Shown here piece by piece: positions 18,040 through 43,985 of a stretch of 53,241 bases of DNA. The first letter of the stretch is position 1, and each line of letters begins with the position of its first letter. This stretch comes from Catajapyx aquilonaris. Its lineage: Eukaryota. A program made the position numbers and the translations under genes. The stretch lies in contig KZ538695.1 of assembly GCA_000934665.2 (NCBI GenBank), positions 1 through 53,241 of the forward strand. Reading direction: 5' to 3'. The notes under the pieces were generated by a model. It did not search any database. It was not told the DNA's origin and was given only the letters and a program-made list of their open reading frames with translations.

Positions 18040-18045
18040 AGAGAG

Positions 18046-18077
<32 letters not shown>
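18040..18077. repeat. (GA)n microsatellite next to a single-N join
   Basis: Direct reading. Confidence 0.95.
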
Positions 18078-18201
18078 AAGGAAATAAAGAGAATATAATT
18101 TTTAAGTATGATCAAGGGTGAAAATATCTCTGGAGTAGATCTAAGACAAAAGCTAACATCTCGAATCTGTTCCTCTACTCAAGTTGATGACCCACACCGA
18201 A

Positions 18202-18385
18202 GCAGGTTGGTGTAGTGGATATGGAGTCCGCCTGCTAATCGGGAGGTCCTGGGTTCGAATCCCGGGGCCAGCGACCCTGACCGTCGCTTTCCGTGGTTTC
18301 CCACGGTCCCCCCAGGATAATTCTGGGGTCGTGTCCGTAAAAATAGGCCACAGCGGCTTCCTTCCGTCCATATCCTTGACCCCAC
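18202..18385 (+). mobile_element. tRNA-derived SINE
   Basis: A box TGGTGTAGTGG (18208-18218) and B box GGTTCGAATCC (18252-18262), followed by a non-tRNA body tttccgtggtttccc...aataggccac...cttcc typical of arthropod SINEs. Confidence 0.75.
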
Positions 18386-18756
18386 CCAAAAATTTTCCTC
18401 ACATATATATCTACAATCCAACATTCAACCTGAACAATGTGATCCAAACATTATGATTCCACACGATTAGGCATGGCTCCTGTCCCTTCAAATTGTGCAT
18501 AATGATACCATATCCACCATGTCCAAATCTCTCTGAATCTGAAGCCATAAGCCCTAGATCGCCCATTTTGCACAGATGTTGGGCGTCTGGTCTCATGAGG
18601 AATATGACGAATCCTCCCTTCCTCCCCCTTTTTTTGGCACCCAGGGCCATTGCCTACCTTCCTACACTTCATTCTATACTGGGTCTTTAATAATATTATC
18701 ACAGATAACACGGTAGGGTCAACTCATGGGGACCAGAGGATCACCTTATGTATGTA

Positions 18757-19614
18757 CAGTCCTGCTCATAAAGAATGGTACGACTCAGGGCCGGTGAAAG
18801 ACCTGGTGTGGGTGTGGAGCACTCCCCACCCGAATGATTCCGCATGGAGAAATTCCCCACCCGAAATCGGGGAGCAAATGGTCAAATGAAAAGAAATATC
18901 AACAGAAAAAAATTGTCATGCTCGTTTTTCGGTCCTGAAACGTCTGAAAAATTATCTTCTTACAACGATGTCCCAAAATCGGTTGAATGGCGTAACAATG
19001 TTGCATATTTATTCCGAAGAGGTCGACATACTTGATGATTAACAGTTAATGGACGAATTCATATCGAAAAATTCGCACTTTCTCGCAAAAAAATGAAAAT
19101 CATTTTTGGTAATATTGCTCTTACTAATTTATCCCGTACCGTAATAATTGCACTTGTTTTGAATTTCGAAAATGAGTTCCCCCCCCCCCTCTGCCCCTCC
19201 CCTACTTATTACTCACCACCCGGGCTGAATCTGTTTCACCGGCACTGGTACGACTCTATGGACAACATGTTTCTTCTGACTATCCAGCATTATTCCCAAC
19301 CTGATTTGGTCGCGACACTATGGACAACTTGTCCTAGATCTCTGGTGACCCATATGACCCCCTCCCGACTTTTTCCGAAATTTTGTATACCAAAATGTTC
19401 AACCTGGTCCAATGCTTACATAAATTTGAGATGAATTTCCCCCCTTAGATTTTCTTACTTTGCCTTGTTTTTTTTCTTCTCTTTTTTTTCTTGATTTTAA
19501 TTGCCTTTTCCCAGCCTTCCTCATGACCCCTAAAAACATGCTGGTGACCCAGAGGTTGGGAACAGAATAAACATTTTGTCCATAGAGTCGTACCATTCTT
19601 TATGAGCGGTACTG
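18757..19614. mobile_element. Tc1/mariner-type MITE interrupted by a hAT MITE
   Basis: TA-flanked TIRs cagtcctgctcataaagaatggtacgactc / cagtaccgctcataaagaatggtacgactc (rc). The left TIR resumes at 19248 after the insertion. Confidence 0.8.
18786..19247. mobile_element. hAT-type MITE
   Basis: TIRs cagggccggtgaaa / cagtgccggtgaaa (rc). Perfect 8-bp TSD GTACGACT at 18778-18785 and 19248-19255. Confidence 0.85.
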
Positions 19615-19999
19615 TACACCTGGTGCCAATATATGATCTGTTTCAGATAATGGGCTTCAAACACAGCCTGTTAAATATCCTGGCAGATGTGCATCGCTCT
19701 GCATAACCTTGCCTTTTTCATTTAAGTACATGCTACCCTGCAATTCTAAATTAAGCTATGACCTCCTTAGGTGTAGCATGCATTGAGAAAGACAATGGAA
19801 GTGTTGCAGGCTGTATATGTGGCAGAGATGTTCAATGCAGTCTTTCATTAATACCAATGATCTTTGTTAATGAGGCTATGAAAACCAAATGACACTTCTT
19901 CATAAATGATTCTGTGGTGCCCAGGAGTTCACCCTAGAACCCTGTAAATATTATTATGGGGCATCCTCCATACATGCTTCAAGGAATTCATGCCACTAA

Positions 20000-22900
20000 T
20001 TATTTTGTGGCAACCAATGCCAAGCTCCTAGGAGATATTGAATCGTTAAAAATCTTCACTAGTTTCACTTCACACTTCTGTTCTTGCAAGTAAACTAAAG
20101 CATCTGCAAGAATCAAATGCTCACAAAGGGGTTGGATGAGTGCTTGAAGTGCACTCAGTCCTTCCACAACACGTAAAGATGGCATGTGATGCAAAAACAA
20201 TTGCAGAAGAGGTTCCTTGTGTCTTTCATTAATACCATAACACTTGGAAGCTGCCTCCACATATGATTTAGGACAGCCAAGGTGTGTTTTATGTATCCCT
20301 CGTCGTTTTTTTCCAAGCACAAGACCTCCTAAAATAAACGATAATATTAGTATCATGTTTTAAAAGTTCTGTACAGGACAACTGATAATATAAGATTTAC
20401 CACTAGTCAGACCTGTGAGGCATACGCTTCTCACTGACAACAACATAAAAACTAGTTGACAGTTTCAAAGCAGGGACAGGGGGAGAGGTGTTGAATTAGT
20501 CTCCCCTGCTGTGTCCTTAACCCTGTACCGCGCATTATTGCAGGCCCGTGGAGAGCCGAGGCAGGCCCCATGGGTAACCTTCAAGGCCCCCCCCCCCCTC
20601 CCCTTCTTTCCAACCTAACCCACCCTAACCTTCTACAAACGGCATGAGCAGATCAGATTATTTAAATTATTTTATTTTATTTTATTCTTTATTATTTCGG
20701 CATTACAGGCCGTCCGGGCTCCCTGGCTCCAGCCATACCTACCACCCCCTCTCATCGGGCCTGCATTATTGTGACTTGAGGACAACAATATAAATTTGCG
20801 CAGGCGCCATAAGCTTCAACGTTGGTCCTGGAAACCACAGTGTGGCTTGATGTCACAGTTAGTTTGTTAGCTTCCACTAGATGACAAGCAATGTCCACAA
20901 ATGAAGCGGAGAGAATCCAAGGTCCTTGAAAATGGCGCGAAATTTGAATTTGCTGAAGCAGCAATATATTGTTTCTGGAGCTGATTAGATATAGGTACAG
21001 ATATTAAATATCCAATTACATGTGTAAAGTGCAAAGAGTAGCTCTCTCGCCACCATTTTCAGCCATTCTAATTTTGCCAGCACAATTTCATCACAATTTT
21101 TTGGCGGTGCAGGCTTGAGGTTTGAGTCCTAAGTCATTGTTCGTATTTTTTTCCAAAAACGGTAACATGTACAAATATGCCCATTACTACGTTTTTAAGG
21201 TCCGGCGATTATAATTTGGACTGGAATATAGATGGCCCAGAGATCTCAAGGAGAGCCGGCAAACGAAAGGGGATCGTGACCCCCACCCCGAGCTGCATGC
21301 GATGGTGGAATGGTGGGGGTTATGACCACCTTTAGTTTTCTGGCCCCCCCCCCTTGCGATATGGATGCCATCTGTATATCAGATCAAATTGTAATCGCCA
21401 GACCTTCAAAACTTAGCAAAGGTCATCTCTGTATGTGTTACTGTTTTTGAATTTAAAAAATACTTGCCATGACTTTTGACTCAGTCCGTTTAACTTCAAA
21501 GTCATTGGGTCAGAGATGACCAAAACATAATAAAAACCCTCAGTCGCCTATGGTGAGAAAAAGGTGTTAGAATTAGGGCAACACGGTGGCCGAGTGGTTA
21601 GTGCCGCAGCCTTCCACGTCTATGGTCCAGAGTTCGATACCCGGATCGGACAGGGGATACTTAGGTGGATGGAGTCTCGATGCGTTCTCTCCGTGTTCGC
21701 GTGGGTTTTCTCGGGGTTCTCCCGTTTCCTCCCCTATCAAAATCCATCACATTACAGGCAAATGATTAAAGTCGGTTATTCAAAAGATGATCCCCTACGA
21801 GGCCCAAGGAGGCCTATCACGGGGTATCCATTAATATATACTGTATATTATTATTAAAAAGGCGTTAGAATTTTTTTCTTCCCGAAATCCTAAATGTGTG
21901 CAGTACAGGGTTAAAAACGTGGATTACTGTCATAAATCATTTTCTGGCTGTTTACTTTTTCCTAATGCTTTTTTGGGAAAAGTACATTTTATTGAAAACT
22001 GTCAAACTTCTCCAGATATTCTTTGCCTTTTGATGTCCATTATCAAGTTATTACTGACTTTGCCTGTTAAAATTCATAATTTTATTAGTAACAAGACTAA
22101 CAACTTAATGTCTAGGAAATGACCTTGTCACTGTTGGTCATGCCTGTTTTCTGGGGAATCCCCATATAATCAATACCGACAGTATTTAAGGACCCATCAT
22201 TGCAACAACCCTGTTCTGCAATGATTCCCTCAGTGAATGTGTCAGAGACAACGTCAGAGTGCTCTGACACTGAGGGCACATTCACTGGTGGGCAGGGGTT
22301 CCGCTAAACCACGAACCACTAATAGCGGAACTAACTTTTCCGTTAGCTGATTAGCGTTTTCGCTAACTTTGTAAACAGTTAGCGGACCAATAATTAGCTT
22401 CCTCTAAGTTTTGTTTTGCTAAATGTCAGTTTGCTAACAGATGTATTGAGGGCCACGAGAGCCACCCTCTCAGATCACAACTTTTAGAGGCTGACGTTTT
22501 TGAAGGCTAACCGCCATCACTGCGAAACTATGGAGTCGGAGATGGTGCAGCCCACGGGTCCAGCCAAAGTGAATTACATTTTCCGATTGTACGAGGGCCA
22601 GTCAAAACAAATTGAGACTGATTTTTTTGTGATAAAGACAATAATATTAGTTTATGACTTGCAGTGAATGATATCATGTGCAGAATGCGAATGGATTGAA
22701 GTATTATAACATCAATTTTTGTTCACATATTCTACGATCCCAGGCAACTGTGACACCGGATGTAGAGCTAGGTTGATATTTGCCTCCTCTCTGCCAGGAG
22801 GTCAGCAGTGAGGACCAATACTCTGCATTGAGGTTTTGCTTCAGTTTGAAGACAACAGCGATGAAGGCGTACGACATGCTAGGAGAGGGGTATGATGAAG

Positions 22901-25900
22901 AAGTGTTCCGCAGCATTTAGATGGTACAAATCATTCAGCGAGGGTCGGTAGTCAGCTTTCCAAGAGACAGGTTTTCAGACTCATATCTGAGATCTTTAAC
23001 ATCTCCTGTACAGTGATTTTCCAGGAAGATCGCCTCAGAACAGTCGATGACTTAGCCAGAATATGTGGTATCTCCTGTGGTAGTGCCAACACAATTTTGC
23101 ATCGACAGTTTAACCATTTTCACATGCGACGCGTTTGTGCCCGATGCGATGGGCCCCAGGCTGTTAAGGCAGAGGAGGCCAGAGGAGAGGCAGATGTGGG
23201 TGGAGATTTGCAAAGAGTTGCAATGTCTTGTGGCTGCACATGGTTACCGGTGTCTGCTACTCATATTCTTAGCATGTCGCACACCTCCCTGGCTGGGATG
23301 GGGGGCATGTGGGTGGCCTAGTGGCTATGCTACTGGCCAGCCAAGCGGGAGGTCCGGGGTTCAAATCCCGTCCCCGTCACCTTCACTTGGTCGGGTCTTT
23401 TTCCGCTTTTCACCCAACATGTCCGGGCAGAATTGCACTCCCTTCTCTGCCCAGGGCCAAGAGAAAAGGTCTGGTGTTTAAGAGGGTCTGAAATTACTAC
23501 TTAAGAGTGCCTCCCTTGGGAACCTTTCCCACCCCCCCCCCCCCTAAAAGGGCCCCTGGCCCTATCACTTGGTAATACAAACANTTCCCCCCCCCCCCCC
23601 CCCTAAAAGGGCCCCTGGCCCTATCACTTGGTAATACAAACAAACAAACGTGGCTGGCTGGTTTTTTGTTTTTGTTTTTTGTTTTTGTTTTTCAATGGAA
23701 ACAAAACCTCAACACTGAATATTGGTCCTCACTGCCGACCTCCTGGAGCAGGGGCGAATGTGAACCTACTATTTCCGGTGTCAGAATTGCCTAGGATCGT
23801 GGAAGATTCGAACAAGAATTGGTGTGTGAATACTTCAATTCTGGACAAGATGTCATTCACCGCGATTAATGAACAAAGTCTCTTTGTCACATAAAAAATT
23901 AGTCTCAATTTGTTTTGACTCGCCATCCTGGGCCTGAAGGAGGTGCCATCGCAATGGGTACCCTGAATGTTGGTGCCAGGGCAGAGGGGTTTGATGCTCG
24001 CTTCTCATTCCTCAGGATGAGAGTAGGTTCTTACTTCCATTCTGAATATGAAGAAACACCTTTGTGGTCTGCTCCATGGGAGTGATGAAGAGTGCAAGTC
24101 AGCAATAATAAAGGATATCTTGAAGTGGTGGGACTCTTCTTTCCACCACTCTGGTTTGGGCAAAGTGGACCAAAGATTGAACAAATTGTACCAAAGATTG
24201 AACAAATTGTTTGACCTTTGTGGATTGTGGGGCCTACATAGAGAAATTTTAAAAAATATCATTGCTATATCTCTGGCCTTTTTGCTTTTGCAGACTTGTA
24301 TAATCCCCTCGTTTATCCTACCTGACATTTCAGCTAACATCCAAAATTGCATTCTACCCACCTTGTTCAGCATACACCTGAAGCAAGGACCGGTATGCAA
24401 CTCGCTGACTGTGATACAAGTGTTGCTTTTCTGAGGTGCGCCACTTGCTGGGAGCTTCTTGTGCAGCCAACCTCAAGAGGTGGGTATTCAACCACTTGTT
24501 CCCAGGAGTCACACATGCATGAAGCTTTAAACTCATAGGAAAATGTTCCAAGTGGGCATGGCCTGCATCAGTGACTCTCTTGTGGTAGCAACATGGCACC
24601 AGGACAAGCAAAGAAAATTGTGGATACTGAGAAAAAAGTTCCAGTATTGTAGATGAAAGGTCACCACAGCAGTGCAGCCCCACAAGGCAGACTGGAGGTA
24701 GTTGCTCATCTAATATATCCACTGTCCTGAAATTGCATATGTTGTTGCACTTTTTTTTTAAATACAGCACTCGACGCAATATTTATACCTGGTAGGTTTT
24801 GTCTTATTGTGTGTAGAGTTGCAGTGACATGTGCCCAATTCTAAAAGTGTGCTCAACATTGGAATAATAGCTTTCAATGCTTCGTCTGGGTCTTCCAATA
24901 CCAAATGCTTTTGTTGTATGCCATCACATGCAGGTGTGAAATTCTTTGTGGACAGGAGGCGCTTGGCAGCTTCCACATGTGCCGTTTGGGAATCAAGCCC
25001 CAACACTTGAATATTTCCACACAAATGCAATACATTATCCAAATATCCCTGAAACAGATAGTTCAGTTTAACAATAAATGAAATTAAATGTCCCAATAGA
25101 GAATAGAACAAAGGCAGATGAACAAGGTAGTGAAACTGGTAATAAGTTTGGAATAGAATTTGCATTGCAATATTTACTGCTTATTGTTGGGATGGCCCTT
25201 TCAAGCATATTAGTGTGGAGTATCAGTAAGGAAATTTAGAAACTGGAATAATTTAAAGAAACTGGAATGTGCACCCCACCATTTTTCTTCTCTGCTGAAC
25301 ATCATTCTTGCTCTATTTGGTCATTAAATTATGCCAATAAAGAGGAATACAAGAATACAGCAATACAGAGGAAATACAATGCAAATTAAAATGTTCTCAC
25401 CAGACCAGCTCCTATGTCAATCACATGCCCACATTTGTGTGTTTGACACTGTTGCAAAATTAAGTGTGCCAGGCGGTTTACTTCATGTTGCTTCTTAAGG
25501 CTCATATGTTTCTTTATGTTATGCGGAATATTTAGCTCCATTTCACTTTCCAATGAATATTCCCTCAAATGAAGGTAAAGCTGGCAACACTTGTTAACAA
25601 AGCATTGCAATGAAGATGGCCATTCTAACTGCAAGATAAGGAATAATTTAATTTATAAAATACTAATGTGATGTCTATGAGGAACTTATTTAAATTCTTT
25701 TTAAAGCAAGGTTATCTCATTGTGAAAGCATTAAGGGATGGTTGTCCTCACGGCCGAGGAGTGTTGTATACATATACAGGTCTAGAAAGTAGCCCCCTTA
25801 TCACGTGGATCTCCCGAGTCCCACCCGCCAGCTTCTACGCCGTAGTACATGGAGCAACACCCCTCACTGCGATGAAAATTATTACTATTAATTGAGAACG

Positions 25901-27503
25901 AAAGGGGGAACGGAGAGGGGAACGAATGGACCATGCCAAGACCATGCCTACTAGATTTGAATTACCGGTTTGGGAGTCATCGCGTTCCCCCACCAGGTTT
26001 GCTGTATGTGGTCCGGCATAGAGCACTAAAAAAACGAGACAAAAGCGCCTCGAACTCACGTGATGTGGCACCCTACCTAACTACTGATAAGCCTGGGGAG
26101 ATGAAGTGGCGCCGCGGTAACGCGCGCACCCACGGATATTAAGGTCCCGGGTTCAATCCCCACCCGGGGTTCCCACCTTTATCTGTGCAGAGTTGGACCA
26201 TCTCTGGCTTCATTTCGGGTGGCAATTTCCGATAGACTAAGCCACCCGGGGGAGTTCACAAAATAACCGCTAGAGACATTGCACATGCACTTTGCACATC
26301 CCCTCCTACCTACCCTTGGAACAAACTAAATACTATCTTAGTATACCGGTTCCACCCAGATGGTGGTATGCCACCCCCGTAAAGGAGATGTAACTCTCAA
26401 TGGAATAATGCAAAAAAAAATAATAATAAAATAAAAAATGATAAGCCTCTTCTTGCCTCTCAAAAGTCACAGGGGTCAGAGGGGGACACCTATGGGAAAA
26501 AAACGAGTTCCACTGGGGTGGTTGTGCTACTGAAGGTATACTTTCAACCAATGAGGATCAGATGAGAGCATGCCATGTTTGAATGCTTGATTGATGGGTC
26601 AATATGATGTAATATTGTGTCAACAGAAAGGCCACATTTTATTCAGCCCATTCCATTCCCATGCTATCCATTCCATTCCAGGACCAATCTTGCAGGTTCT
26701 TGGTCACATGGTTAATTCGAATTGTTTTGAAAGCACCCTCTACCTTCCACCATGCACTCTCACCCTACATTTACTGTAAACATAATGCAATATCATCCTG
26801 CCATTTCTGACCACCCATGCTGTAGTCCATGATATGGCCAGTCACAGCCAGAATTCCCTCCATAGATCTCTCTTCCCTGCCTTTGACCAAAAGTTGATCA
26901 TAGTTGTAATAGCTGGCAACATTTAACCAATAATAATTAATAACAAAGATAAACCTTCAGGCAAAAGTACACCTTCAGCAGTGCAACCGGGCCTAAGAGT
27001 AATCTAGCATAACCACACCTCTTAATATTACAACCCCCCCTTGCCACAACCGAAAGTAACAAGACTCCACACAATACGGGAGAAGAGGGAAAAGTTATGC
27101 ATTGTTTCTTCCAGGCAGAATCAATAATCAAGTCTCCCTCAATGGCAAGTTACAAAATTAATTTACAAAGTAGTACCATCATTTGCCTCAACTTTTCCAA
27201 TTCAACTGTCTTAGGTAAGTTAATGCTAACCTACTCACTTGATTTTTAATAAACTTGATATAATTATTACTTGTCTCACTAGAATGTAAGTACCTTGGTT
27301 ATTCCATTGACTATCCCATTAAGGTCATCTAGGGTGAATTGTTCAAATGTTGACACCCAAGAGGATGGAATCTTCTCAAGTGTATCTGTCAATAACAAAT
27401 GAGTACCTTTATAGGAATACACCCAGTAATATTCTTCCAGAAAAGTAGTCACTTCTTGGAAGAACAAGTCATAATTGGATAATTCACGAGGAAGATGCTC
27501 CAT
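20000..27503 (-). CDS. METTL25/METTL25B(RRNAD1)-family SAM-dependent methyltransferase, 463 aa
   Basis: Exons 27503-27294, 25628-25401, 25048-24789, 24726-24362, 20328-20000, all GT-AG and phase-compatible (1392 nt). Motifs KKQHEV, VIDIGAGLGYL, VGLHCCGDL, VPCCYHK, YRSLLQ, EHLILAD...YLQE, SPRSLALVATK. The paralogue cannot be resolved by eye. Confidence 0.9.
20521..21910. mobile_element. piggyBac-type non-autonomous element in the last intron of the methyltransferase gene
   Basis: TTAA|ccctgtaccgcgcatt ... aatgtgtgcagtacaggg|TTAA. Contains imperfect inverted arms of about 120 bp (21121-21237 / 21365-21486) and a SINE. Confidence 0.7.
21578..21857 (+). mobile_element. tRNA-derived SINE with a V-domain-like core
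   Basis: A box TGGCCGAGTGG (21587-21597), B box GAGTTCGATACC (21630-21641), core gttctctccgtgttcgcgtgggttttctcggggttctcccgtttcctccc, and a (TAT)n tail. Confidence 0.75.
22592..23928 (+). mobile_element. Defective mariner transposon
   Basis: TA|cgagggccagtcaaaacaaattgagact TIR with an inverted copy at about 23880-23928. Transposase N-terminal remnants (ALRFCFSLKTTAMKAYDML; EDRLRTVDDLARICGISCGSANTILH...MRRVCAR). No catalytic domain seen. Confidence 0.85.
23305..23480 (+). mobile_element. tRNA-derived SINE inserted in the mariner
   Basis: A box TGGCCTAGTGG and B box GGTTCAAATCC. It interrupts the transposase remnant. Confidence 0.65.
26100..26260 (+). mobile_element. Degenerate tRNA-derived SINE head
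   Basis: A-box-like TGGCGCCGCGG and B box GGTTCAATCCC at tRNA-like spacing. The 3' boundary is uncertain. Confidence 0.45.
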
Positions 27504-28000
27504 TATTCAGTTCTCTGCACCTGAAATAAGAAACAATTATTCTTATAAATATCTTGACGCTCATGGGTCTGCATCATATAAAATTTATTTCATTTTTAGT
27601 TACACACATTGTATTCGTTTAAACTAATCACTGCTGCATGACATTTTAACATGTATTTTTCAGTCATTTCCCTGACACACTGCTGAAGATTGACAAATTA
27701 CAGTCCATTGCTTACATTTGTTTCAAAAAATTGTGGATTTCGTCGGCTGTATTTTTTTAACATCTTAAATTACTATGAGCACATAAACTAGACTCCAGAA
27801 GAAATTATTTAACATAAAGCATACTGGGTGTACTATATCGTAATGTAAACTTGCATTGTTAGTGTGAAGTAACTAGTGTCTGGTTCAAAAAATAATTTTC
27901 CATTAGAAAAAAATCCCACCTTTAATAATAATAATGTCAGTAAATAATATAATGCAGCAGTATATAACCATAACAAAAACACTTTTATATTTTGTCAGAT

Positions 28001-31000
28001 TTACAAAGATACAGCGTTCCAACCGTCACTCTTATTTCCATTGTCACTAGGTCCCATACAAACTCTTCCCACATGTTCCGCATGCTTCAAATATTTGTTG
28101 CCTACATGCAGTAAATCCTGCTTATCAACATTGAACAGTTCACGGCGATGAGCCTGAAGCATGTCATCACTGATCCCATTCAAAAACAGGTTCATTCCTC
28201 TATTACCAGGTGCAATGGGAGAATCAACTTGTTGAAAAACACCCAACTTGGCTTCTTCTACATGCTGATCTGTGAAGTTCAATTGGTGCAGCCAATCTAC
28301 GGCCTTGTCAAATGTAGAAAAGGTGGAACTGCGATTGGGGTCTCGATAAGAAAAAAATGAAAGAACACCACCTGAACCAACATGTGCACCTGAACCATAT
28401 GCACCTCCTTTCTCACGAATTTCCCTGTGCAAGAACTGTGATGTGAGCAACTTGGACAGTATTCGCAGTCGGGCAAAGTCAGGATTTGAAAACGGAACTG
28501 CTGGAAGGGCACATGATGTGAAATGCACATTGAGAGGAAGTACAAAATGAATTTTCTCTGACATTGGTTTAAAGCCCGAGGCCACAGTGTGAATGGAACT
28601 GCCTCGGGAATCCCCAGGCAGGGTCTGAACAAACTTTTCCAGCGATTTCAAGGTATCTAATTCACTACCTGGGGACAAGTTCAGAGAGCAACGCAGGTGA
28701 TGCTTGTTGAACACCCTTTTACATATGTCTTGCATTTTTTGTACAATGTCACTAAGGTCTGACATTTGCGCAATTTCTTTTAAACGATTAATATATGTCA
28801 GTCCACCAAACAGTTCCTTAAGCTCATCTGCTGGACTAAGCAGCCCAGCAGCTTTGGTCATGCAGTAGTGATGGCCTATGTGAGTCAATCCATTCACCAT
28901 GTCTGTTGCAGTTTCCTTAACAAGAGTTTCAAATCGGTTCATGTCATGGAAAGTGACATCCATTAGCAACTCCTGGAACAGTTCAAACATGTCTGACACA
29001 TTTCTGTTCAAGCAGTATGACGAGAACAATATCCCCTGTTCAAATCTGTTTACATCATCTACACTTGCTGCAACATGGGGTTTAAATTGTAATCCTCCTG
29101 TTTTCAGTGACACCAGCTGGTCAAACTCCCTAAAACTGTATCGTTTAGTGCCCATTTGTGTAACCACAGTGCAAAAAAGAGGCAATAATGCTTTATGTTC
29201 AACTGGTAAGTCACTGATGTTAAGTATGCCTCTAAAATATGCTATTCCATTTGTAGGCTGAATGGATAACTGCAAAGGTACATTGTTTATTTTCGATTCA
29301 GTCACTGCTGTCCTCTCTACATCAGATTTCAGATCTGAAATGTGCAACATTGGAAGGCACGATGTGTCTACCATCTTACTCTGCTCATCCAGCAATTCCT
29401 GTCCCTGCTTAATGATTTCTGACTTGTGAGCTTCTGACAACCTACTAAGTTTGGTTTGTAAAACAGCTTCCTCAGAAGTTTTCAAATCTGTCTCAAATTT
29501 TTCACTTGGTAACATGGTCAACACCAGTTGGTGAGTGTTGTCAAGAAAGTATTCTTGAATTTTCTTTGATAAGAACAGAGGTTCTTCCCTACGAAAGGCA
29601 TCCAATATTTTGGCAATTTTCAATGCACCTATGACATCTCCATCATGATTCCACAATGGAGTAAGATTGAAGAGCAGCCCAAGTCCAAAATTAGGTGACT
29701 GATGCTTAATTGCCAGCTCAACTCGGTGCAAAATTGCTTCCACTCTATCTTTTGGAAATCCTTCCTTAGCAACGCTCTCAAGTGTGCTACGAACAATTGA
29801 AATCGCCCTATCAAAATCCTGCTCACTCACTCCCTGTAGGCCTACTGTGAATGTTGTGTCTCTGGTATGAGCGTCAAATCCCGAAACTGGAGAAAAACCA
29901 CATGCAATGTTAGGCTCAATCAAGCTCTTGTAAAAGGGTGCATTAGGACCGTCAATCAATAGTTCTGACAACATCTGAAGGACAAAAGATTCATATGTAT
30001 TGGTAATGTCGGACATCAAAAAGCTAACAGATAAGGTTCCCTGCTTTTGTGGATCTGGACTCATGGGATCAAATCGGCTTTCAACATGCTTTCGTCGTGG
30101 TTCAGTCCATTTCGGCTGACATGGAACAGAGGTGTCAATAGCTTTGTAGTCATAATGAGTCAAGTAATTATCATCCACAAATTTCAGATGCTTCTCAAGA
30201 TCAAAGTTCCCATAACTGTAAAACCTAGCATTAGAAGGATGATAATGGTGGGAATGGAAATTTTTCAAATCTCTCCACGTCAGCTCTGGAATTTTGGTTG
30301 GATCTCCACCAGAAACAACACCATATGTATGCGATGGAAGAAGATTGTTTATCAAGTGTTGCCCAAAGAGTTGCTGTGGATCACTGAAAACGCCTTTCAT
30401 TTCATTGAACACTACTCCCTTGATAATTATAGGGCTCTTCTCATTCTTAACATCAGAATGCTCCAAACGCCACCCTTCCTGCATAAAGTCCAACTCACGC
30501 AGTTTAGGCCTGAAGACTGCATCCAGATACACTGACATGAGGTTTTCGTAATCCTGTTCATTCTGTGATGAAAATGGATATATTGTATAATCAGGTCCTG
30601 TCATAGCATTCATAAATGTAGACATAGAACGGTTTAGCATCTTGAAGAAGGGATCCCGGCATGGATACTTCTGACTACCACACAACGTGGTATGTTCAAG
30701 TATGTGAGGAACACCTGTTGAGTCCATAGGTGTAGTTCGAAATCCAATAGAAAACACATTATTAGAATCGTCTCGTGCAATGTGCAAGTACTTTGCCTTG
30801 GTTTTCTTGTGAGTTAATTTTACAGCTGACAGGAACAGTTCTGGAACATCTTCTACAGCATCCACTACAAAACCTTCAACCTCAGTTCCCTTTCTGATAT
30901 TGCTTGCGTGCACATGAGTGTACCTTGTGCTACTAGTTACACTATGACACCATATGTTATGCCATCTGCACAGCTTGTTTATGCTTCTTACTTTCAGCAT
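28001..31000 (-). CDS. PITRM1: Mitochondrial presequence protease (pitrilysin metallopeptidase 1, M16C), 999 aa, single coding exon
   Basis: Uninterrupted 3000-nt ORF. Inverted zinc motif HILEH, RDPFFKMLNRS, FMNAMT, GVVFNEMKG, IREKGGAYG, FSYRDP. Basic, acid-free N-terminus consistent with a mitochondrial presequence. Confidence 0.97.
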   Translation of the reverse strand: MLKVRSINKLCRWHNIWCHSVTSSTRYTHVHASNIRKGTEVEGFVVDAVEDVPELFLSAVKLTHKKTKAKYLHIARDDSNNVFSIGFRTTPMDSTGVPHILEHTTLCGSQKYPCRDPFFKMLNRSMSTFMNAMTGPDYTIYPFSSQNEQDYENLMSVYLDAVFRPKLRELDFMQEGWRLEHSDVKNEKSPIIIKGVVFNEMKGVFSDPQQLFGQHLINNLLPSHTYGVVSGGDPTKIPELTWRDLKNFHSHHYHPSNARFYSYGNFDLEKHLKFVDDNYLTHYDYKAIDTSVPCQPKWTEPRRKHVESRFDPMSPDPQKQGTLSVSFLMSDITNTYESFVLQMLSELLIDGPNAPFYKSLIEPNIACGFSPVSGFDAHTRDTTFTVGLQGVSEQDFDRAISIVRSTLESVAKEGFPKDRVEAILHRVELAIKHQSPNFGLGLLFNLTPLWNHDGDVIGALKIAKILDAFRREEPLFLSKKIQEYFLDNTHQLVLTMLPSEKFETDLKTSEEAVLQTKLSRLSEAHKSEIIKQGQELLDEQSKMVDTSCLPMLHISDLKSDVERTAVTESKINNVPLQLSIQPTNGIAYFRGILNISDLPVEHKALLPLFCTVVTQMGTKRYSFREFDQLVSLKTGGLQFKPHVAASVDDVNRFEQGILFSSYCLNRNVSDMFELFQELLMDVTFHDMNRFETLVKETATDMVNGLTHIGHHYCMTKAAGLLSPADELKELFGGLTYINRLKEIAQMSDLSDIVQKMQDICKRVFNKHHLRCSLNLSPGSELDTLKSLEKFVQTLPGDSRGSSIHTVASGFKPMSEKIHFVLPLNVHFTSCALPAVPFSNPDFARLRILSKLLTSQFLHREIREKGGAYGSGAHVGSGGVLSFFSYRDPNRSSTFSTFDKAVDWLHQLNFTDQHVEEAKLGVFQQVDSPIAPGNRGMNLFLNGISDDMLQAHRRELFNVDKQDLLHVGNKYLKHAEHVGRVCMGPSDNGNKSDGWNAVSL

Positions 31001-31504
31001 GTTGCTTGTTGAGGCAGCTACTGTGTCAGCAACTCTGCAAAATAATAGTTTGGATTATAACTACATGGATGATATTTCAAGGATTTCAATAACAAGTTTG
31101 TTATAGGGTAGCAAGATTCCCCACTGCATAGAAGACAAAGCAACACTAGTGAGATTCTTTGCACATTGACGATGAATAAGTTCAATAATAAAATAATTCT
31201 CCTTAATGGAACGAGCATTTATAAATTTATTATCCTTACAGTAAGCATTGCACTGTATACAGTAGTTCATAGCACAAGTTGAGCCATACTTGCTAACTGC
31301 ATGGCATGTGAATGCCATCATAGCCACAATTCTTATGGGAATGAAAAGACAGCATCCACAATGCACCAGCAAGTATGGCTCAAGCTCAGGCTCACATCCT
31401 GCCTCAACAAGCACTTGTGAACTACACTTAGATCTCAAATGTTAAGATGTGTTCCCAAGTTCACGAGAATTGGTGTTTCCAAGAAATTGAGACTTTTTTT
31501 GACT

Positions 31505-32245
31505 CCTTTAAAATCGGTACTCGGGGTCATGCACGATAAGTCGAGCCTGACAAAAATGGGTGATAGTGTTTCGTCTCATAATTACAAAACTAAAAGCAAC
31601 ATACAAACGATACATATAGCGTCGAGTAGACCAAGGTTGTTCATACTTGCATGACCTTTAACCCGAGTGCTCAGGGTCAGGGCGCATGCGTGGGGGGGTC
31701 AGCAAAATGACCCAATTCTACGGTGAGTGGCGGGCTTCGGGCCGGTAACTTCAGATTGCGTCGACTGAGGACTGGGAAAGTGGGTGTCATTTGAAAGCTA
31801 ACAAACTACACTACAATTCACATTGGCCAACAATCATCGTGAATGATGAGGATTCTGTGAAAAGTGAGCTTGAAGTTGGTGAAAAGTGAAAATTTCATAA
31901 TGTCGTCAAAATAGCATTCGAAAACTCAACAGCATAGATGCATAGAGAAATGCATAGATGAAAGAGCAGCTCGTAAGTAACACAAGGAGCCCAAGAAGTC
32001 AAATGTCGAACGACAAAGAGAGTACAGACAACGAAAGAAAGATGTGGCGGCCAAGTGTATGGATGAGTCACTGAGTACTAGTACAATGCATGACCCATAC
32101 AACATTATGCGCAAGATGCTATAAGACAGACAGTATATGAAGGATTACTTACAAAAGAATCATTGTAATGGTAACGAAACATTATCACCAATTTTTGTAA
32201 CAGTTGACTTTTCGTGCATGCCCCCCAGCACTGTTCTGATTTTAA
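31505..32245. mobile_element. Degenerate inverted-repeat element upstream of PITRM1
   Basis: Imperfect arms of about 80 bp at about 31505-31590 and 32160-32245 (catgcacgataagtc...caaaaatgggtgatagtgtttcgt vs catgcacgaaaagtc...caaaaattggtgataatgtttcgt, rc). Confidence 0.6.
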
Positions 32246-32599
32246 AGACACACATCAAAAACCTGCGGCTTGTGTCCCAACACAACCTAATGCATACAGA
32301 CCAGTCAATGGACAACCAGGGTCTAATTATTGCAAGCTTTGAACACATCTTTAGGCTTTCACTGCACAACTATGAATGTGGTTCAGTATCAAATGCTCTA
32401 CACCTTTTCTGAGTGACCATATATTATGCACATACTGTGCTCATACCTCAACACATGGCCTCACTGTGCTGTTTTTGAACCCTTCGGTATTTTCAACTGG
32501 ATCACTTGAAGATTCTTTTTAAACCAGTCTCTGTACGTCCATGAACTTAAGATGCCGAAAAAGTAATCCATTAATACCCCGAAAGTACAACAAAATTAC

Positions 32600-32965
32600 C
32601 AAATCTTCTGAAGGAACCGGCAGTCAGAATATCCTGGCTCAGTGAATCACTTGGAAGGCAACAACAGTGCAGCTCTGTAGTAACCACACTTCAACAGCAA
32701 CCATTGACCGCGCCAACCAAGGTCTACGTAGTCAGGAGTGCACCATATCATCTATCCTGACGACCTGACGCAAGAGGCTGGTCCTGTTGCCGTACGCACG
32801 AGTCGCGTGGTTTCCTCAAGCATCAGGCTGTGTGTATCATGCGTAGTATCGACTATCGAGTGTGCAAGACTGCAACCGACCGAAAGTCTGCTGCCTGCTG
32901 CCAACCCGATATTATCGTATTTGGGACTAAACGTGTTTCAGATATTAAAACCAGGTAAACCGAGG
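32600..32965. promoter_or_regulatory. Putative bidirectional promoter between PITRM1/METTL25-like (-) and MESH1 (+)
   Basis: Local CpG enrichment at 32700-32920 between head-to-head genes. Outward-facing donors on minus (TTG|GTAATT at 32600, GAG|GTATGA at 32447) and plus (CAG|GTAAAC at 32954, GAG|GTAAAC at 32964). Confidence 0.55.
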
Positions 32966-33187
32966 TAAACAGTACACTCCACGGTACACTGCATCAGTTA
33001 TTCATTCTGGGGTTTCACCAGGTTTCACAAATAAGCTCAATATATATTGGTCTGGCAACATCTGGGCAGCATTGCCACATGTACCAAAGAGCTTGATATG
33101 TTATGATGCCTTGTCATGCAGTCACATGGTATTTGCAATTAGCACTTGTTGCACTTGTATTGTGGTCACAGCTCTCATTAATTTAAA

Positions 33188-34016
33188 ATGGTGAATTCAT
33201 GCTGTGAGGCTGTTGCAAAGGCAATTATACAGTGTACGCAATTTGCAGCTCTCAAGCATGCTAATCAGCGTCGAAAGGACAAGGAACAAACACCATACAT
33301 TAATCATCCTATAGGTAACACAGCAAATTTTATGTGCAGCCCTGCACAAATGTTACTTATTGAAGGTGTGTTCACAAGCTCATGAGAATCTGGCATTGCA
33401 TGTAAGCGCAAGAAGCCAATCCTCAAGACGTGTAGGCTATTTGTCTGTTTACTTCTAGTTCTCACTAAAATGTCTTGAGAGTGCTCAGATACACCAGTTC
33501 TCATGAGCTTGTGAACATGCCTTAAACACTGGGACTGCACTGATCTTTCTATGTTGTAATTACTAAAATAATGTTAGAATTGCTTTTTCAGGTGTTGCAT
33601 ACATCTTGATTAACGAAGCCAACGTGTGTGACATCTCAGTTATACAAGCGGCTCTCCTGCATGATACCGTAGAAGATACAGACACTACATTTGATGAGAT
33701 TGAATTGAATTTTGGGAGCGAAGTTCGAAAGCTTGTAGAAGAAGTGACGGATGACAAAAGCTTGCCCAAATTGGAGAGGAAACGTCTTCAAATCATCCAC
33801 GCAAAAAACGCAAGCCAGAAAGCAAAGTTGGTCAAATTGGCTGACAAATTATACAATCTACGAGACCTAAACAGAGGCACTCCAGTTGGCTGGTCCCAAC
33901 AGCGTGTTACCGAGTATTTTGTATGGGCAAAAAAGGTTGTTGATGGATTGTGCGGCACAAACAGCATCATGGAAAATCTCTTGGATGAAATATTTCAGGC
34001 AAGAAATGTAGTATGA
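33188..34016 (+). CDS. HDDC3: MESH1 HD-domain ppGpp hydrolase / NADPH phosphatase, 183 aa
   Basis: Exons 33188-33314 and 33592-34016 (phase 1, GT-AG). Motifs FAALKHANQRRKD, PYINHPIG|V, AALLHDTVEDTDT, EVTDDKSLPK, VKLADKLYNLRDL. Confidence 0.96.
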
Positions 34017-34423
34017 TAGAATTTCTTCTTTGTTCAAACGTAGAAGCTCATGGTTTGAAAAATGTGGAAGTATACAAGGTATTTCAAAATGACAAATGGT
34101 GTCATGTGGTAGTAGCCGAAGAGCTCAGCCATCATGTAGCTATGTTGGTTTTGGGGTTTAAAAATTTAACATTTTTAAATGCCCAAGCACAACTTACTTT
34201 TGACATGAGGTAATACGTGGTGTGGCTAAAAAGTTTGGTGAATGTTCATCTCATGAATATCTCAAATACAATGCATGTGACAAGTTTGAGAATGAACACA
34301 GACATTCAGGGACATGTCTAGAAGCACCGCCTAGCGTGGAGTACGCATGGCTGAAAGTGCACTGCTGCCGCAATCATTCGAGTGCAGTCTGTGTGAGAGG
34401 TAGCATCACACAGCAATGCTTAA

Positions 34424-35476
34424 CTCTTAGTGCAGTGGAAAAATTCACTTAACTAGTGCGGTGGGGGGCAAATGACCCCCAGACTAAAATTATTTTTTTC
34501 TAGCTTTGCATTCCAGGATAATCAATTTTTAAAAATACCATCAGATGCAACACTTCATTAGAAATGTCATTTTCTACTCTCCCACATTGTATCTCATGTT
34601 TTTATGTAGTTAAAAAAATCCAGAAAAACATGCTGCATATTCCTTCAAAAGCAGTCCTCATGTCCACTCTGGTAACATTGTAATAATCCGAAAAAAAAGG
34701 TTCCCTAAGTACCCTCCATGCCCTTATCTACTGATAGGACGCCAGTTCCCCTAGCCTTCTTGCCCATGGGGCCTTGAGTCATCCTGCTTGGATGATTCAA
34801 GACTACGTGTTCTTGCCCACCGCAGATAAGACTAATCAGATGGAGTAAGGTACGGGAAGTGCAGAATTTCACATATTTTCCCTACACTCATATTTCGGCA
34901 AACTTTGAAAATATTTCCGATGCAGAAATCTTGATTCATTAATTTTTATAGGGCTGCATCCCAGTCAGTAGCCTATTACTGTTAGATTGGCTGTTGCGTA
35001 AGAATGCATTTGCACATTTTTCTCTTGCAAAACTGATGCTCATTTTTCTAGTGTTTATAATAAAATTATCCCTGTCTTGATAGGCCTATTCAGAAATCCT
35101 CCGTCTACAATTCAAAGCAAGAGCCTTTTCTTCAACTCCCGTGGTTTGCATACCAGACAGGATTATAGACGATAACAGAACTGATAATAGCACTGGGGGA
35201 GTGTGGGGCCAGCCCCTGTCAGGGTTCCTGCGGAGACCCGCCCTCTTTCTAGCCTGTAGCCGCGTTGCCGAATTTTCGGAAAATTCAGCTTCTTAGGTTT
35301 TTTGATTATTACAATTTTACTAACATAGATTAAAATACGTTAATAATACTAAAGTTGCAGAAATATTTGATTGACAATTAGAAAAATTCCCAAGGAGATG
35401 GGACTGTTTTAAATGCCTTTTATATCCAAAAATGAGGCCTTGGGGGTCAGTTGCCCCCCACCGCACTAACTAAGAG
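34424..35476. mobile_element. piggyBac-like non-autonomous element
   Basis: TTAA at 34420-34423 and 35477-35480. IR ctcttag..tagtgcggtggggggcaaatgaccccca / tgggggtcagttgccccccaccgcacta..ctaagag. Confidence 0.7.
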
Positions 35477-36460
35477 TTAAATAGGGGGGAAACCAGTCAC
35501 ACACACATTTTCTGGTCACAGTATCTTTCCCATACACTTTACTCAACATTGTGCTTCTCTGTCACCTTTTTCCCCAATATGAAGCAGAACAATGTTGTGT
35601 TGTTGCTCTGTTGCTGTGTGATGCCACCTCACACAGAGACTGCATTCAAATGACTGCAGTAGCACTGCACTTTCAGCCGTGTGTATCACAGCCATGATTG
35701 GTATAATACAGGTATGATGAGTGAACGCACCATTCAATTTCTCTTTTATTACTACAGTGCCAAAAGCAGCAATGGCTACTTGTATAATGTATTGCATGAT
35801 GCTCAAAAGTGAAAATATTTGTGAAAAGCATAAAATTTTGTGGGATAAAATTTACTATGGTTTAAATTTTATGATATAAAATGTCTGATATAAAAATATG
35901 TGGTGCAAAATATCGTAGCATTTGTGTGTGAGGAGTACTTCAAAAGGTGGCTTTCAAGTGAAGTGAGACTACCTGCTCCCTGCATTAGAACTGGTGGTTT
36001 TATAGAACTGCCCGATTGCCAGTGAAACTCTTGGTACTACTGAATCTCCTCTCCATACCTCCTGCCTGGTTCTACTCCTACTTGACAGGTTTTGGACACT
36101 CCTGCTCCTCCTGCTTCTCTATTTATAGCATGAAATTTTTCCTCCATTCAAATGTCATTTTTCTGCACCATTCCACTCTATTTTTTAGACCAAGAATTTT
36201 CCTGATCAAGATTTTTGGCACCACATATTTTTATAACAAAAAAACTTATTCATAAAAAATTGTGAACCAAGAAAATGCACTCAAGTTGTTTTTTACCACT
36301 AATTTTTTGGTTTTTCACTAAGGTGAAGTGGAGAAAATTCATACACCATTGATATCTCAGTTTTAAAATGGTTGCTATTCATCTAGTAGACATGACATGT
36401 TGAACCAGATCACCGTCTTATCATATACAGGTCTGGTCACCCCTCTTATCCCATTCAGCT

Positions 36461-36634
36461 AGATGCCGTGGGCGGTAGTGCATAGGATAACCTCTACAGC
36501 ACTGCTCAGGGCAAGTGAGGGGCGAGTGATTGTTGCGATCCTATTGGGCGATTCTGCATTTAGTAGAAGCACTGCGCATCGTCCTGAGCAGTGCTGTAGT
36601 GGCTATCCCACCCACTACCACCCACAGCAGCTAT
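36461..36634. repeat. Imperfect fold-back element of about 170 bp (probable small MITE)
   Basis: Arms ...ggataacctctacagcactgctcagg / cctgagcagtgctgtagtggctatcc... extending about 55 bp. Confidence 0.6.
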
Positions 36635-40079: not shown

Positions 40080-43000
40080 TTAATGCTTTTTTTCATAAAA
40101 TTCTTTCATGAAAGCTGCCAATGTCTTGACATTATCCACGGTGATAGCATTGTACAAAGAGGCACGCATACCGCCAACAGTCCTGGAATTAGGAATATCA
40201 TAAGATTTTATATTCCAAACTGCATGTCATAACATTACCTATGGCCAGCTAGTTGCAGCATCCCATGCTTTTCTGCCTCAGCTAAGAACTCCTTTTCAAG
40301 ATTTGCATCACCGTCTGTACCACCAACTCGGAATGGGACGGTAACACGACTGCAATATTTCTTTTCAACTGGGCAGTGATAGAACTTGTTGGATGACTCA
40401 ATTGCATTGCTGAGTATTTTGCTCTTCATTTCAGAATTTTTCTCCATGGCTGCCAAGCCGCCATTCCTTTTAATCCACTTGAGTACTAGACCCAGAATGT
40501 AAATGCTGAAATATCCATAAACAAAATTATTGCATTTCCACCAAGAGCCCTGGGAGAATGGTAACACAAAGGAATTTCATATCATGCATACTCTTAGGAC
40601 CTGAGTACACTACTGAAGGAACAAGGTTGGGTCAGCCCTTATTGCTTCCTCAACAGTCCAAAAGGAATTGTGGGAAGAGAAGGGGTAGTCGTGGTGGAGA
40701 AAGGGGCAAATTAAAGTGATTGCGACAGGTTCTTCTTTTGGTGTGCTCATGCTATGGACCTTGATAGCATCTCAGTCAGTATGACATGCTAATAATACAG
40801 AAAATTTCATTACACCCTACAAAGGCAAACAAATTACCCCTGCCATGCAAATAAAAATACTGTAGGCCTATCCTAGAAACCTCAGTTCCAGTGTACTAAA
40901 TTTCATAAGGTGAAAATTTTGTAACTTAATTTATTTCAAGTGAATCTGAAATCCCATTGTTTTCCTGGAGTCTCCAGTATTGGTTTATTAATACAGTACT
41001 TACTTATATGTTGGTGGTGTGTTCAACAGGGAATTTTCCTTTGCTGTGGGAGCATAATCCAGGATGGCTGGGCACAGAGGCAAAGCATTTCCAATGAGAT
41101 CATCTCTCACAATTACCACACTGATCCCTGCGCACCCAATATTCTTTTGAGCACCAGCAAAAATTATTCCAAACTGGGGGAAAAATATATACAAGTACAA
41201 TACATAAGTTATTTCATTTGACCAGCTGGAGGGGGGGAAGGGAAACTTATTGCCATGCATAGAGAGTGCATTCCAATTGAAGTGACATTTTGAAAGCAAG
41301 CATGTACTCACTGCATTTAAGTTGCCACATAGGTATATGATTGTAAGCTTGTAAGCACACAGCATCCTATATTCACCACTGTATGCACCTCTTGGTTTTT
41401 AGGACTAACTACACACAATAAGCACAATGAAATCTGGACATGTCATGTTCAGTATGTGGGAAGCTAGGAGTACTGTGCTGAGTACATATCAGTGAAATGG
41501 TAGGGTAATTCCAGGGTATACAGGGTGAAGGGAAACTCGCGCCCAATCGCCATGTAGACTGATAGTACTCGCAAAACTAATATAGGGATGTGCAATTAGT
41601 TTTTGGCGCAGTTGCATAGTTAATGTGTACAGTGCCTTTAAAGTGTAGAGGGCCGGATTGTAAAATATGAGGCAAAAATGACAAGTGCACGGATGTCGTA
41701 CCCGGATTTTTACTTTGACGGGATTTGATCACCTATTGCACATGGACGATGTGTTACGGACCCAAGGCTGGATTGTTCAGAGGCCCTTGAGATGGCTTTT
41801 TCTTCTTTATAGCTGGCGGAATGGATGTGACGTCATGAAAGTTTGACGGCACCATACACATTAATTATGCAACGGCGCCCAAAACTAATTGCACATCCCT
41901 ATATTAGATTTACAAATACTATAAGTCTACCTGGCGCTGACGATTGGGCGCGAGTTTCCCTTTACCTTGTATAGTGGGGGCATTGGGTCTGCCCATTGAA
42001 TATGTCATGGTCTTTTTAGTGTTTTTTTTACTCTTTTGCCATTACTTCATGTCACGATTGATTAAATGATTGGGCTTTTAATGGCACAAAAGCAGCAATA
42101 CTCTCTTGTATTCAGCTCACAGAGGGCATCATGTCCTTTCCCCTTTTAGACTTTTTTTTATAATGGCATTTATGTATTTACATGGGGTTATTAAAAGTCA
42201 ACATGTTTACAAAGTAACATGCCATTACTGAAGCTAGCAGGCCCAATTTTATACAGAGCCTTATACACAATTTCACTATAACATGGCAAATCATTACATT
42301 CACAACTGCAAGTACCCAAGTATCATATATGTACTTGCTTGCATGTCCTCACAGCTGGGCAAACACATCTTAATCCCCATAATGATCCTTCATGCTACCA
42401 TCAATGCCTTGTATCCCTCACTCCCAACAGAAACTTGGCTTACTTTATGGATGGGCCCTTTGCCTAGCACAGCAGTAGCAACATTTATAGTGATTGATGT
42501 ACTGTAGCTTGCAATTATGCAGTTGTTAATTATTTTACTGTGCATTATTTACAAACCTTGGAGACATCAACTTTCTTAGTCATGATGTTAGATGACATGT
42601 CAGCTACAATTGGCACATTACCAGTGCAAGGAACCTCTGGGAACTCCACACCTAGAATAAGAAACACATTCCGAAATATTAGAACTTAAGTAGCCTACAT
42701 AGCCTGGGTTACTACACAGCACCAGAGTATTGACTTCTCATAAAGGATCAACATCAGTAACTGATCTGACTTTATTTTATGAAGGCAGATATACTCTTAA
42801 TGTGCAGATATACTCTTAATGTACAAATATACAGTTTACACTGATATAGGCTATTCTTTCTTTTAATAAGTCTTCCTTATTGTCCTATGACAATTTTGAA
42901 AGATAAATGCAGCATCACTCATTGTGTATATTGCCTAATTTTCCCATCCCCTTATGGCTCAATTATAGGCATGATTAGTATGTTCTGTCTTGTATCATAC

Positions 43001-43924: not shown

Positions 43925-43985
<61 letters not shown>

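Follow-up and report, generated by a model that had tools for sequence, protein, structure and literature searches.

The contig KZ538695.1 of Catajapyx aquilonaris (assembly GCA_000934665.2), analysed here over positions 1 to 53,241 (the window), carries two unrelated enzyme genes in tandem on its minus strand: PITRM1, which encodes a presequence protease, and a METTL25B/RRNAD1-like methyltransferase gene. We propose that the two genes make up one conserved two-gene transcription unit with a promoter at about 32744-32913, and that the METTL25B-like mRNA probably uses the promoter and the leader exon of PITRM1. The linkage, present in 3 of the 3 related loci where it is testable, is a solid result at the sequence level whichever RNA mechanism holds. 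The full scheme, a shared promoter and leader exon from which transcripts either use the PITRM1 terminal exon or skip ahead to METTL25B, stands in our judgment at about even probability. An earlier note on this DNA had placed PITRM1 in a 5' untranslated region (5'UTR) intron of the methyltransferase gene, with one non-coding exon spliced to either enzyme. Its coordinates for the acceptors, the in-frame TGA, the ATGs, the PITRM1 stop, the poly(A) signals and a donor at 27715 all hold in the sequence.

PITRM1 occupies the stop-to-stop frame 28001-31054 and, read from ATG 31000, encodes 999 aa; the coding sequence 31000-28001 is intron-free and ends with the TAA at 28003-28001. All four PreP domains are matched by Pfam above their cut-offs (Peptidase_M16, 1.1e-08; Peptidase_M16_C, 8e-34; M16C_assoc, 9.2e-76; PreP_C, 4.2e-19). 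Relatives number 4,425 at E<=1e-50 among 8,000 candidates, and among the matches listed the protein is 48-54% identical to named presequence proteases across 94-100% of the length. The inverted zinc-binding motif HxxEH reads HILEH, and its residues H99, E102 and H103 are invariant in an alignment of the window protein with four relatives. The N-terminus, as read from the translation, is basic and has no acidic residues.

Transcript evidence comes from X1, the contigs of one small public run of unrecorded kind, which we placed on 17000-36500. We read X1 as transcript-derived because its contigs skip GT..AG introns, and this is the sole ground for doing so. Record 5 (548 nt, 0 mismatches) joins 30631-31034 to 32600-32743 and skips 1,565 nt with GT..AG ends on the minus strand. 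It thus displays directly the junction from 32600 to 31034 that the earlier note had predicted. The non-coding leader exon, exon 1 of PITRM1, covers at least 32600-32743 and ends at the donor TTG|GTAATT (32600/32599). The 5'UTR intron occupies 31035-32599, a segment with which the METTL25B-like 5' intron would also begin under the shared-exon model. The PITRM1 acceptor ttttgcag|A at 31035/31034 is followed 34 nt later by ATG 31000, and a TGA created across the exon 1/2 junction shuts the frame upstream of this ATG. Exon 2 (27568-31034) comprises a 34-nt 5'UTR, the uninterrupted coding sequence and a 433-nt 3'UTR, and is covered by X1 records 2-5 with 0 mismatches. The leader exon also contains a 21-codon upstream open reading frame at 32704-32639 on the minus strand, which, with a shared exon, would lie ahead of both coding sequences.

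The 3' end of PITRM1 is reached by X1 record 2 (1,189 nt, 0 mismatches), which runs unbroken from 28756 to 27568. It reads through the proximal poly(A) signal ATTAAA (27921-27926, minus strand) and stops, without a loose end, 16 nt past the distal signal AATAAA (27584-27589, minus strand) and 47 nt upstream of the METTL25B-like acceptor. The contig end at 27568 is a weak hint to the 3' end of the PITRM1 mRNA. X1 contigs are absent over METTL25B-like exons 1-4 and over 27294-27567, so they bear neither way on the 5' end of that gene; record 1 covers 19809-20216 in its last exon and 3'UTR with 0 mismatches.

The METTL25B-like gene has five exons on the minus strand, which join by script into an intact 463-aa model. 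The first coding exon (27294-27520) begins at the acceptor 27521|27520, has its ATG at 27503-27501, supplies 70 codons and ends at the donor AAG|GTACTT (27294/27293); it is placed by tblastn and acceptor statistics. Exon 2 (25401-25628; 76 codons, with the S-adenosylmethionine motif VIDIGAGL at its end) and exon 3 (24789-25048, with a putative donor choice at 24789) are placed by tblastn and splice sites. Exon 4 (24362-24726) holds the C-terminal part of Methyltransf_32, as matched by Pfam (PF13679) and phmmer. The last exon with the 3'UTR (19809-20328) carries coding sequence from 20328 to 20000 and the TAA at 20002-20000, according to tblastn and the sequence. The exon-4 open frame scores 41.8 bits against the Methyltransf_32 cut-off of 27, and this is the only family matched among 52 minus-strand open pieces at 18.9-27.5 kb. 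A phmmer search with the exon-4 piece returns 640 relatives at E<=0.001, the best of them 40-45% identical; a word-based homologue search with the same frame, set to longer proteins, found nothing. Names are carried by 6 of the 10 relatives looked up, a stick-insect 'methyltransferase-like protein 25B' among them, and the six also include proteins without a named function from molluscs, an annelid and a damselfly.

We used as tblastn queries the 79 relatives of at least 380 aa out of 150 listed. Exon 1 is matched by 44 of these 79, 35 with E<0.001, and since the matches begin at residues 2-39 of the homologues, ATG 27503 is, by homology, the orthologous start. The in-frame TGA at 27509-27507 means that there is no coding sequence upstream of this ATG. 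Residues 10-463 of the model align with residues 7-452 of the 456-aa METTL25B of Bacillus rossius (34% identity, E 1e-77). Methyltransf_32 is reported to be the domain assigned to METTL25B and not to METTL25 (PMC8662637). The label 'METTL25-like' in the earlier note is thus correct at the family level, and METTL25B/RRNAD1 is the better name.

The METTL25B-like ATG follows the acceptor cttatttcag|G (27521/27520) by 17 nt, and from the PITRM1 stop it is 480 nt to this acceptor and 497 nt to the ATG. YAG trinucleotides with at least 12 pyrimidines in the 15 upstream positions occur 63 times on the minus strand of the 53,241 nt, about 1 per 845 nt, and the chance of finding one within 18 nt of an ATG is about 0.02. 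The site is stronger than the RNA-verified PITRM1 acceptor (9/15 pyrimidines), and it also beats the internal acceptors of its own gene at 25049 (10/15) and 24727 (8/15). The 47 nt that separate the PITRM1 contig end from the METTL25B-like exon (27521-27567, minus strand) hold the T-rich tract ttgtttcttatttcag and a TATAAG; the tract is possibly a polypyrimidine tract, a poly(A) downstream element, or both. With just 47 nt available, a separate METTL25B-like first exon lacks room. The first coding exon appears to start at a real 3' splice site with no space for a first exon of its own.

A promoter-like segment is found further upstream. Divergent X1 contigs end at 32743 and 32914, as obtained by depth arithmetic, and flank a CpG-rich segment. 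This CpG-island-like, putatively bidirectional promoter region (32744-32913) has the PITRM1 leader exon on one side and, on the other, a divergent plus-strand gene with an HD domain (Pfam HD_4), which we take to be MESH1/HDDC3-like and whose X1 joints 32951 to 33246 and 33312 to 33590 have GT..AG ends. The CpG observed/expected ratio (o/e) is 1.11 and the GC content 0.50 at 32750-32999, against an o/e of 0.52 for the whole window, which is CpG-depleted. The 5' end of the METTL25B-like gene has no island, with o/e values of 0.63 (27500-27749) and 0.24 (27750-27999). Within 5 kb upstream of the METTL25B ATG the sole CpG island is 32750-32999. A further CpG-rich patch is present in the PITRM1 5' intron at 31500-31749 (o/e 1.04, GC 0.48); it is matched by no Rfam family, covered by no X1 contig and repeated nowhere else in the window, and may represent either a recent insertion or an alternative promoter.

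The same gene pair is found in other arthropod-like DNA. A metagenome contig scan with the PITRM1 alignment (the window and four relatives) gave 590 pattern matches, 472 confirmed relatives and 80 loci that were kept, and these 80 were searched by tblastn with the METTL25B model and eight homologues. A METTL25B-like match occurs in three of the 80, each time downstream of PITRM1 on the same strand. Identity of PITRM1 assigns these loci to an ant-like source (L001, 90.6% to Pseudoatta), a Daphnia-like source (L002, 68%) and a termite-like source (L005, 76% to Zootermopsis). A second termite-like locus (L004, likewise 76%) spans just 1.5 kb downstream and is hence outside the count, so that the pair is present in 3 of 3 arthropod-like loci with at least 2.9 kb of downstream sequence; the earlier note had proposed synteny in relatives as a check, and it is found. 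The other 76 loci have partial PITRM1 sequences or identities of at most 46%, with no METTL25B in the sequence they contain. The PITRM1 coding sequence is uninterrupted in all four of the arthropod-like loci. In the ant-like and termite-like L005 loci a strong PITRM1 acceptor precedes the ATG by 44-46 nt, with 12/15 and 14/15 pyrimidines, respectively, in agreement with the RNA-verified arrangement of the window, where the distance is 34 nt.

Distances from the PITRM1 stop to the METTL25B ATG are 360 nt in the ant-like, 225 nt in the Daphnia-like and about 6.6 kb in the termite-like locus. Each of the four lineages has an acceptor-like YAG close before the METTL25B ATG, at distances of 17, 11, 7 and 3 nt; the per-locus chances of such sites are 0.021, 0.002, 0.047 and 0.070, and their product would overstate the significance, the thresholds being post hoc. 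In the ant-like locus about 108 nt separate the PITRM1 3' signals from the METTL25B acceptor. In the termite-like locus 6.3 kb lie between the METTL25B acceptor and the nearest PITRM1 poly(A) signal, and because of this distance the acceptor is not merely a poly(A) downstream element. The Daphnia-like contig (L002:1-6074) has PITRM1 (153-3199), METTL25B-like (3425-4768) and uricase (5101-5985) in tandem on one strand, all three without introns, and it ends 6 nt past an AATAAA. Both of its downstream ATGs follow an acceptor-like pyrimidine tract, that of uricase with 13/15 pyrimidines and 9 nt before the ATG. The contig may come from the genome of an organism with few introns, or it may have been assembled from polycistronic cDNA. 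Uricase is absent from the window, and the HD-domain neighbor is found in 0 of the 80 PITRM1 metagenome loci. As far as these contigs reach, the conserved link is limited to the PITRM1-METTL25B pair, with neither the HD-domain gene nor uricase kept.

The CpG pattern of the relatives is similar. The two termite-like loci are CpG-depleted, with o/e 0.28 (L005) and 0.34. In L005, CpG-rich sequence (0.65-1.14) is confined to positions 1-2100, the PITRM1 promoter and 5' end, and the 6.3-kb spacer stays at 0-0.4 through the METTL25B 5' end; in L004 the island lies immediately before PITRM1. With an o/e of 1.2 the ant-like locus shows no CpG depletion and is uninformative on the promoter. Donor sites were scored with a rough matrix that gives the window's five supported donors 5.4-9.3 bits, and sites of at least 5 bits were counted as candidates. 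In the window, three such sites (27919, 27715 and 27607) fall between the stop of PITRM1 and the acceptor of METTL25B. That at 27715 (AAT|GTAAGC, 27710-27718, minus strand, cut 27716/27715; 7.6 bits) lies in the PITRM1 3'UTR and matters only for rival models. In L005 the same interval holds 47, of which one precedes AATAAA and 46 lie behind it in the 6-kb spacer. No donor-like GT of at least 5 bits occurs in this interval of the ant-like or the Daphnia-like locus. As these spacers hold no donor-like site, the partner of the METTL25B acceptor must lie further upstream, and the PITRM1 leader exon is the obvious candidate for the partner donor.

These observations suggest the following arrangement. 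From the promoter at about 32744-32913, splicing of the leader exon 32743-32600 to 31034 gives the PITRM1 mRNA, whose single large exon apparently ends at about 27568 after AATAAA. The METTL25B-like gene would have no promoter of its own. Most likely the leader donor 32600 is joined to 27520 and the PITRM1 exon is skipped within a 5,079-nt intron, which would leave PITRM1 nested in the METTL25B-like 5'UTR intron. Each transcript would then yield either the protease, by use of acceptor 31034 and cleavage at 27568, or the methyltransferase, by skipping to 27520, and no one transcript would give both. If the T-rich tract serves both as poly(A) downstream element and as polypyrimidine tract of the acceptor, the two outcomes would compete. 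The conserved pair, the conserved acceptors, the single CpG island and the donor-free spacers of the ant-like and Daphnia-like loci together favor the shared leader over the alternatives.

Several points weigh against this arrangement. The shared non-coding exon of the earlier note stands for its PITRM1 half, through the joint of 32600 to 31034 and the contig end at 27568; the joint of 32600 to 27520 is seen in no data, and X1, being assembled contigs of one run, cannot reveal true ends or isoforms of low abundance. The canonical AATAAA that stands shortly before the acceptor would need to be bypassed. TATAAG lies 26 nt upstream of the TCAGG at the acceptor and could be a minimal promoter of the gene itself, and CpG islands are not required for promoters. 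The three donor-like sites in the window's PITRM1 3'UTR could serve a read-through or mini-exon route, and the donor matrix was not trained on this organism. The acceptor chance figures rest on thresholds chosen after looking. The genes of the termite-like locus are 6.6 kb apart, which leaves space for an unrecognised promoter, and the Daphnia-like contig, intron-free in three genes, may be derived from cDNA rather than from the genome.

Transcription may instead read through PITRM1. Its exon would then be kept, the poly(A) site ignored or spliced out (for example by joining 27715 to 27520), and the METTL25B-like frame translated as the second cistron of an mRNA of about 5 kb. The conserved acceptor requires some upstream donor, and in the window all three donor-like sites precede the AATAAA, which an intron 27715-27521 would hold and so remove. 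Tandem linkage and a single CpG island suit any model of co-transcription. The Daphnia-like contig, with three colinear intron-free genes and its end just past AATAAA, resembles a polycistronic cDNA contig, but it retains acceptor tracts that a spliced mRNA would have lost. The PITRM1 3'UTR and spacer of the ant-like and Daphnia-like loci lack donor-like sites, so that this is not the conserved route, and in the window the X1 contig is unspliced across 27715. A second cistron behind a 3-kb open frame is also translated inefficiently. We consider a dicistronic mRNA unlikely on balance.

We regard as doubtful, to a like degree, a promoter belonging to the METTL25B-like gene, with a start just past the PITRM1 poly(A) site (TATAAG and the initiator-like TCAGG, giving a 5'UTR of about 19 nt) or with a mini-exon in the PITRM1 3' region spliced to 27520. 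The position of TATAAG fits such a start, donor 27715 could close a mini-exon, and the wide spacing of the termite-like genes fits it too. AT-rich, TATA-type promoters need no CpG island, and independent promoters are the default for animal genes. However, the TATAAG/TCAGG promoter leaves the conserved acceptor unexplained and for this reason is kept only as a rival: the acceptor-like site recurs in 4 of 4 lineages, and in the termite-like locus it cannot be a poly(A) downstream element. The 47 nt of the window and the roughly 108 nt of the ant-like locus are too little for promoter, exon and intron, the ant-like and Daphnia-like spacers offer no donor-like site for a mini-exon, and neither CpG-depleted genome has a METTL25B CpG island. 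Tight same-strand linkage over branchiopod-like and insect-like lineages would be unexpected for independent genes.

A true operon is a third possibility, in which the precursor is cleaved at the PITRM1 poly(A) site and the METTL25B-like mRNA is capped by spliced-leader trans-splicing at 27520. Its geometry is present, with AATAAA, then 47-160 nt, the acceptor and an ATG within 3-17 nt, and the Daphnia-like contig has three tandem genes with such acceptors, that of uricase with 13/15 pyrimidines. The lineage of the organism argues against it. In a quick maximum-likelihood tree of PITRM1 the window is sister to 16 neopteran insects with a Shimodaira-Hasegawa-like approximate likelihood ratio test (SH-aLRT) value of 100 and is apart from branchiopods, malacostracans and hemichordates; the tree holds the window and 22 named proteins picked from the 120 listed, with no chelicerate, myriapod or lophotrochozoan. 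Spliced-leader trans-splicing is reported absent from insects (PMC7986045), and with the organism placed next to insects the trans-splicing alternative mentioned in the earlier note is unlikely. In addition, the acceptor of PITRM1 itself is cis-spliced to a local exon in X1, and the ant-like locus has the same design. Rfam gives 0 matches in the whole window at the gathering level and 0 in 27000-33100 at E<=1, and thus no spliced-leader-RNA-like or other match. An operon of this kind is very improbable here, and it is just as improbable that the acceptors beside the METTL25B ATGs of the four lineages and the uricase ATG of the Daphnia-like contig mark a spliced-leader operon in branchiopod- and insect-related lineages.

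The shared leader exon has parallels in known systems. In the cholinergic locus, VAChT/unc-17 lies inside the first intron of ChAT/cha-1 and the two genes share a 5' non-coding exon. Its architecture is alike in having an uninterrupted same-strand coding sequence between the leader exon and the first coding exon of the second gene, in outputs picked by alternative splicing and polyadenylation, and in conservation over long distances. It differs in that its genes serve one pathway and its shared-exon transcripts are proven, whereas PITRM1 and METTL25B have no known functional link and their second junction is predicted. The second gene of the Drosophila Adh/Adhr pair depends on the promoter of the first, having none itself, and its expression involves processing near the poly(A) site of the upstream gene. 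The Adh/Adhr mRNA keeps both cistrons, while the conserved route here probably uses no 3'UTR donor, there being none in the ant-like and Daphnia-like loci. We take CG3107 to be the fly orthologue of PITRM1. In the FlyBase paper, 130 Drosophila genes are stated to share a promoter and 5' non-coding exons, Ip259 and RpS27A being an example (PMC4528330). These pairs are also arthropod genes with a common promoter, a common leader exon and separate coding sequences, but the present pairing extends from branchiopod-like to insect-like lineages. CG3107 occurs neither in the main text nor in 12 of the 13 supplementary files of that paper, the thirteenth not being searchable, so the present pair is not among its listed cases. 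The short gap from an upstream poly(A) signal to an acceptor beside an ATG is also like that of nematode and tunicate spliced-leader operons; unlike in these, PITRM1 is cis-spliced, and the lineage is not known to trans-splice (PMC7986045). A literature search, judged by titles and the starts of abstracts, found no paper on PITRM1-METTL25B linkage among the matches listed.

PITRM1 has 0 introns in 3,000 nt of coding sequence versus 4 in the 1,392 nt of the METTL25B-like gene, and this raises the question of a retrogene. Two papers describe comparable cases: the amphioxus SYCP1 retrogene is a single coding exon of about 3.2 kb that co-opted a bidirectional promoter and gained de novo 5'UTR exons (PMC5803294), and rodent Utp14b sits in the first intron of Acsl3 (PMC5750009). 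PITRM1 resembles them in its one 3-kb coding exon, in its leader from a bidirectional CpG-rich promoter and in its position at the 5' region of another gene. Unlike them, it bears no scars of retroposition: 31020-31120 and 27500-27620 have no common word of at least 8 nt as a target-site duplication, and no A-run follows 27568 as a poly(A) remnant. Since the intron-free state is common to the ant-like, termite-like and Daphnia-like loci, and so to all four lineages, any retroposition of PITRM1 would be ancient, and it is unproven.

The divergent HD-domain gene (32914-34013, plus strand) shows an unusual 5' structure. The conserved N-terminus would start from an ATG at 33189, which the joint 32951 to 33246 skips over, and in the spliced form the frame is open through exon 1 with no in-frame ATG in that exon. 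The gene may thus have alternative 5' ends, or the spliced form may be unproductive. Elsewhere in the window, a 618-aa open frame at 15677-17566 (minus strand) has a GC content of 0.53, no Pfam match and a low-complexity look, and X1 shows a 55-nt GT..AG intron at its 5' end (17511-17565). Summed X1 depth is very high (up to 2,447), with many mismatches, at 17651-18301, 21557-22207, 22859-23509 and 26114-26764, and these stretches are probably copies of a short interspersed element (SINE) or another transposon expressed elsewhere. The third and fourth fall in METTL25B-like introns, and a tRNA-Ser-like element at 18202-18273 lies in the first, outside the PITRM1-METTL25B region. A broken retrotransposon of the long interspersed element (LINE) type occupies 8288-11023 (plus strand), with endonuclease and reverse-transcriptase Pfam matches across several frames. 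A repeat search found no repeat touching 27000-33000. Exons of other genes are seen on the minus strand at 1585-2025 (a ubiquitin-conjugating enzyme, UQ_con 4.7e-29) and at 41003-44252 (weak class-V aminotransferase matches).

The pairing of PITRM1 with METTL25B appears to be ancient, judging from the loci compared. If the shared leader is correct, a mitochondrial presequence protease and a poorly understood methyltransferase would have been expressed from one promoter since before the branchiopod-like and insect-like lineages split, with the output set by use of the terminal exon versus exon skipping. This would be a second deeply conserved organisation in the style of the cholinergic locus, here for two housekeeping enzymes without a known functional link, and it would hint at a hidden one, such as a role of METTL25B in mitochondria. 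In practice, gene prediction that assumes a promoter for each gene will model the pair wrongly or fuse it, and METTL25B may be silenced together with PITRM1 when the latter is knocked out or carries an insertion.

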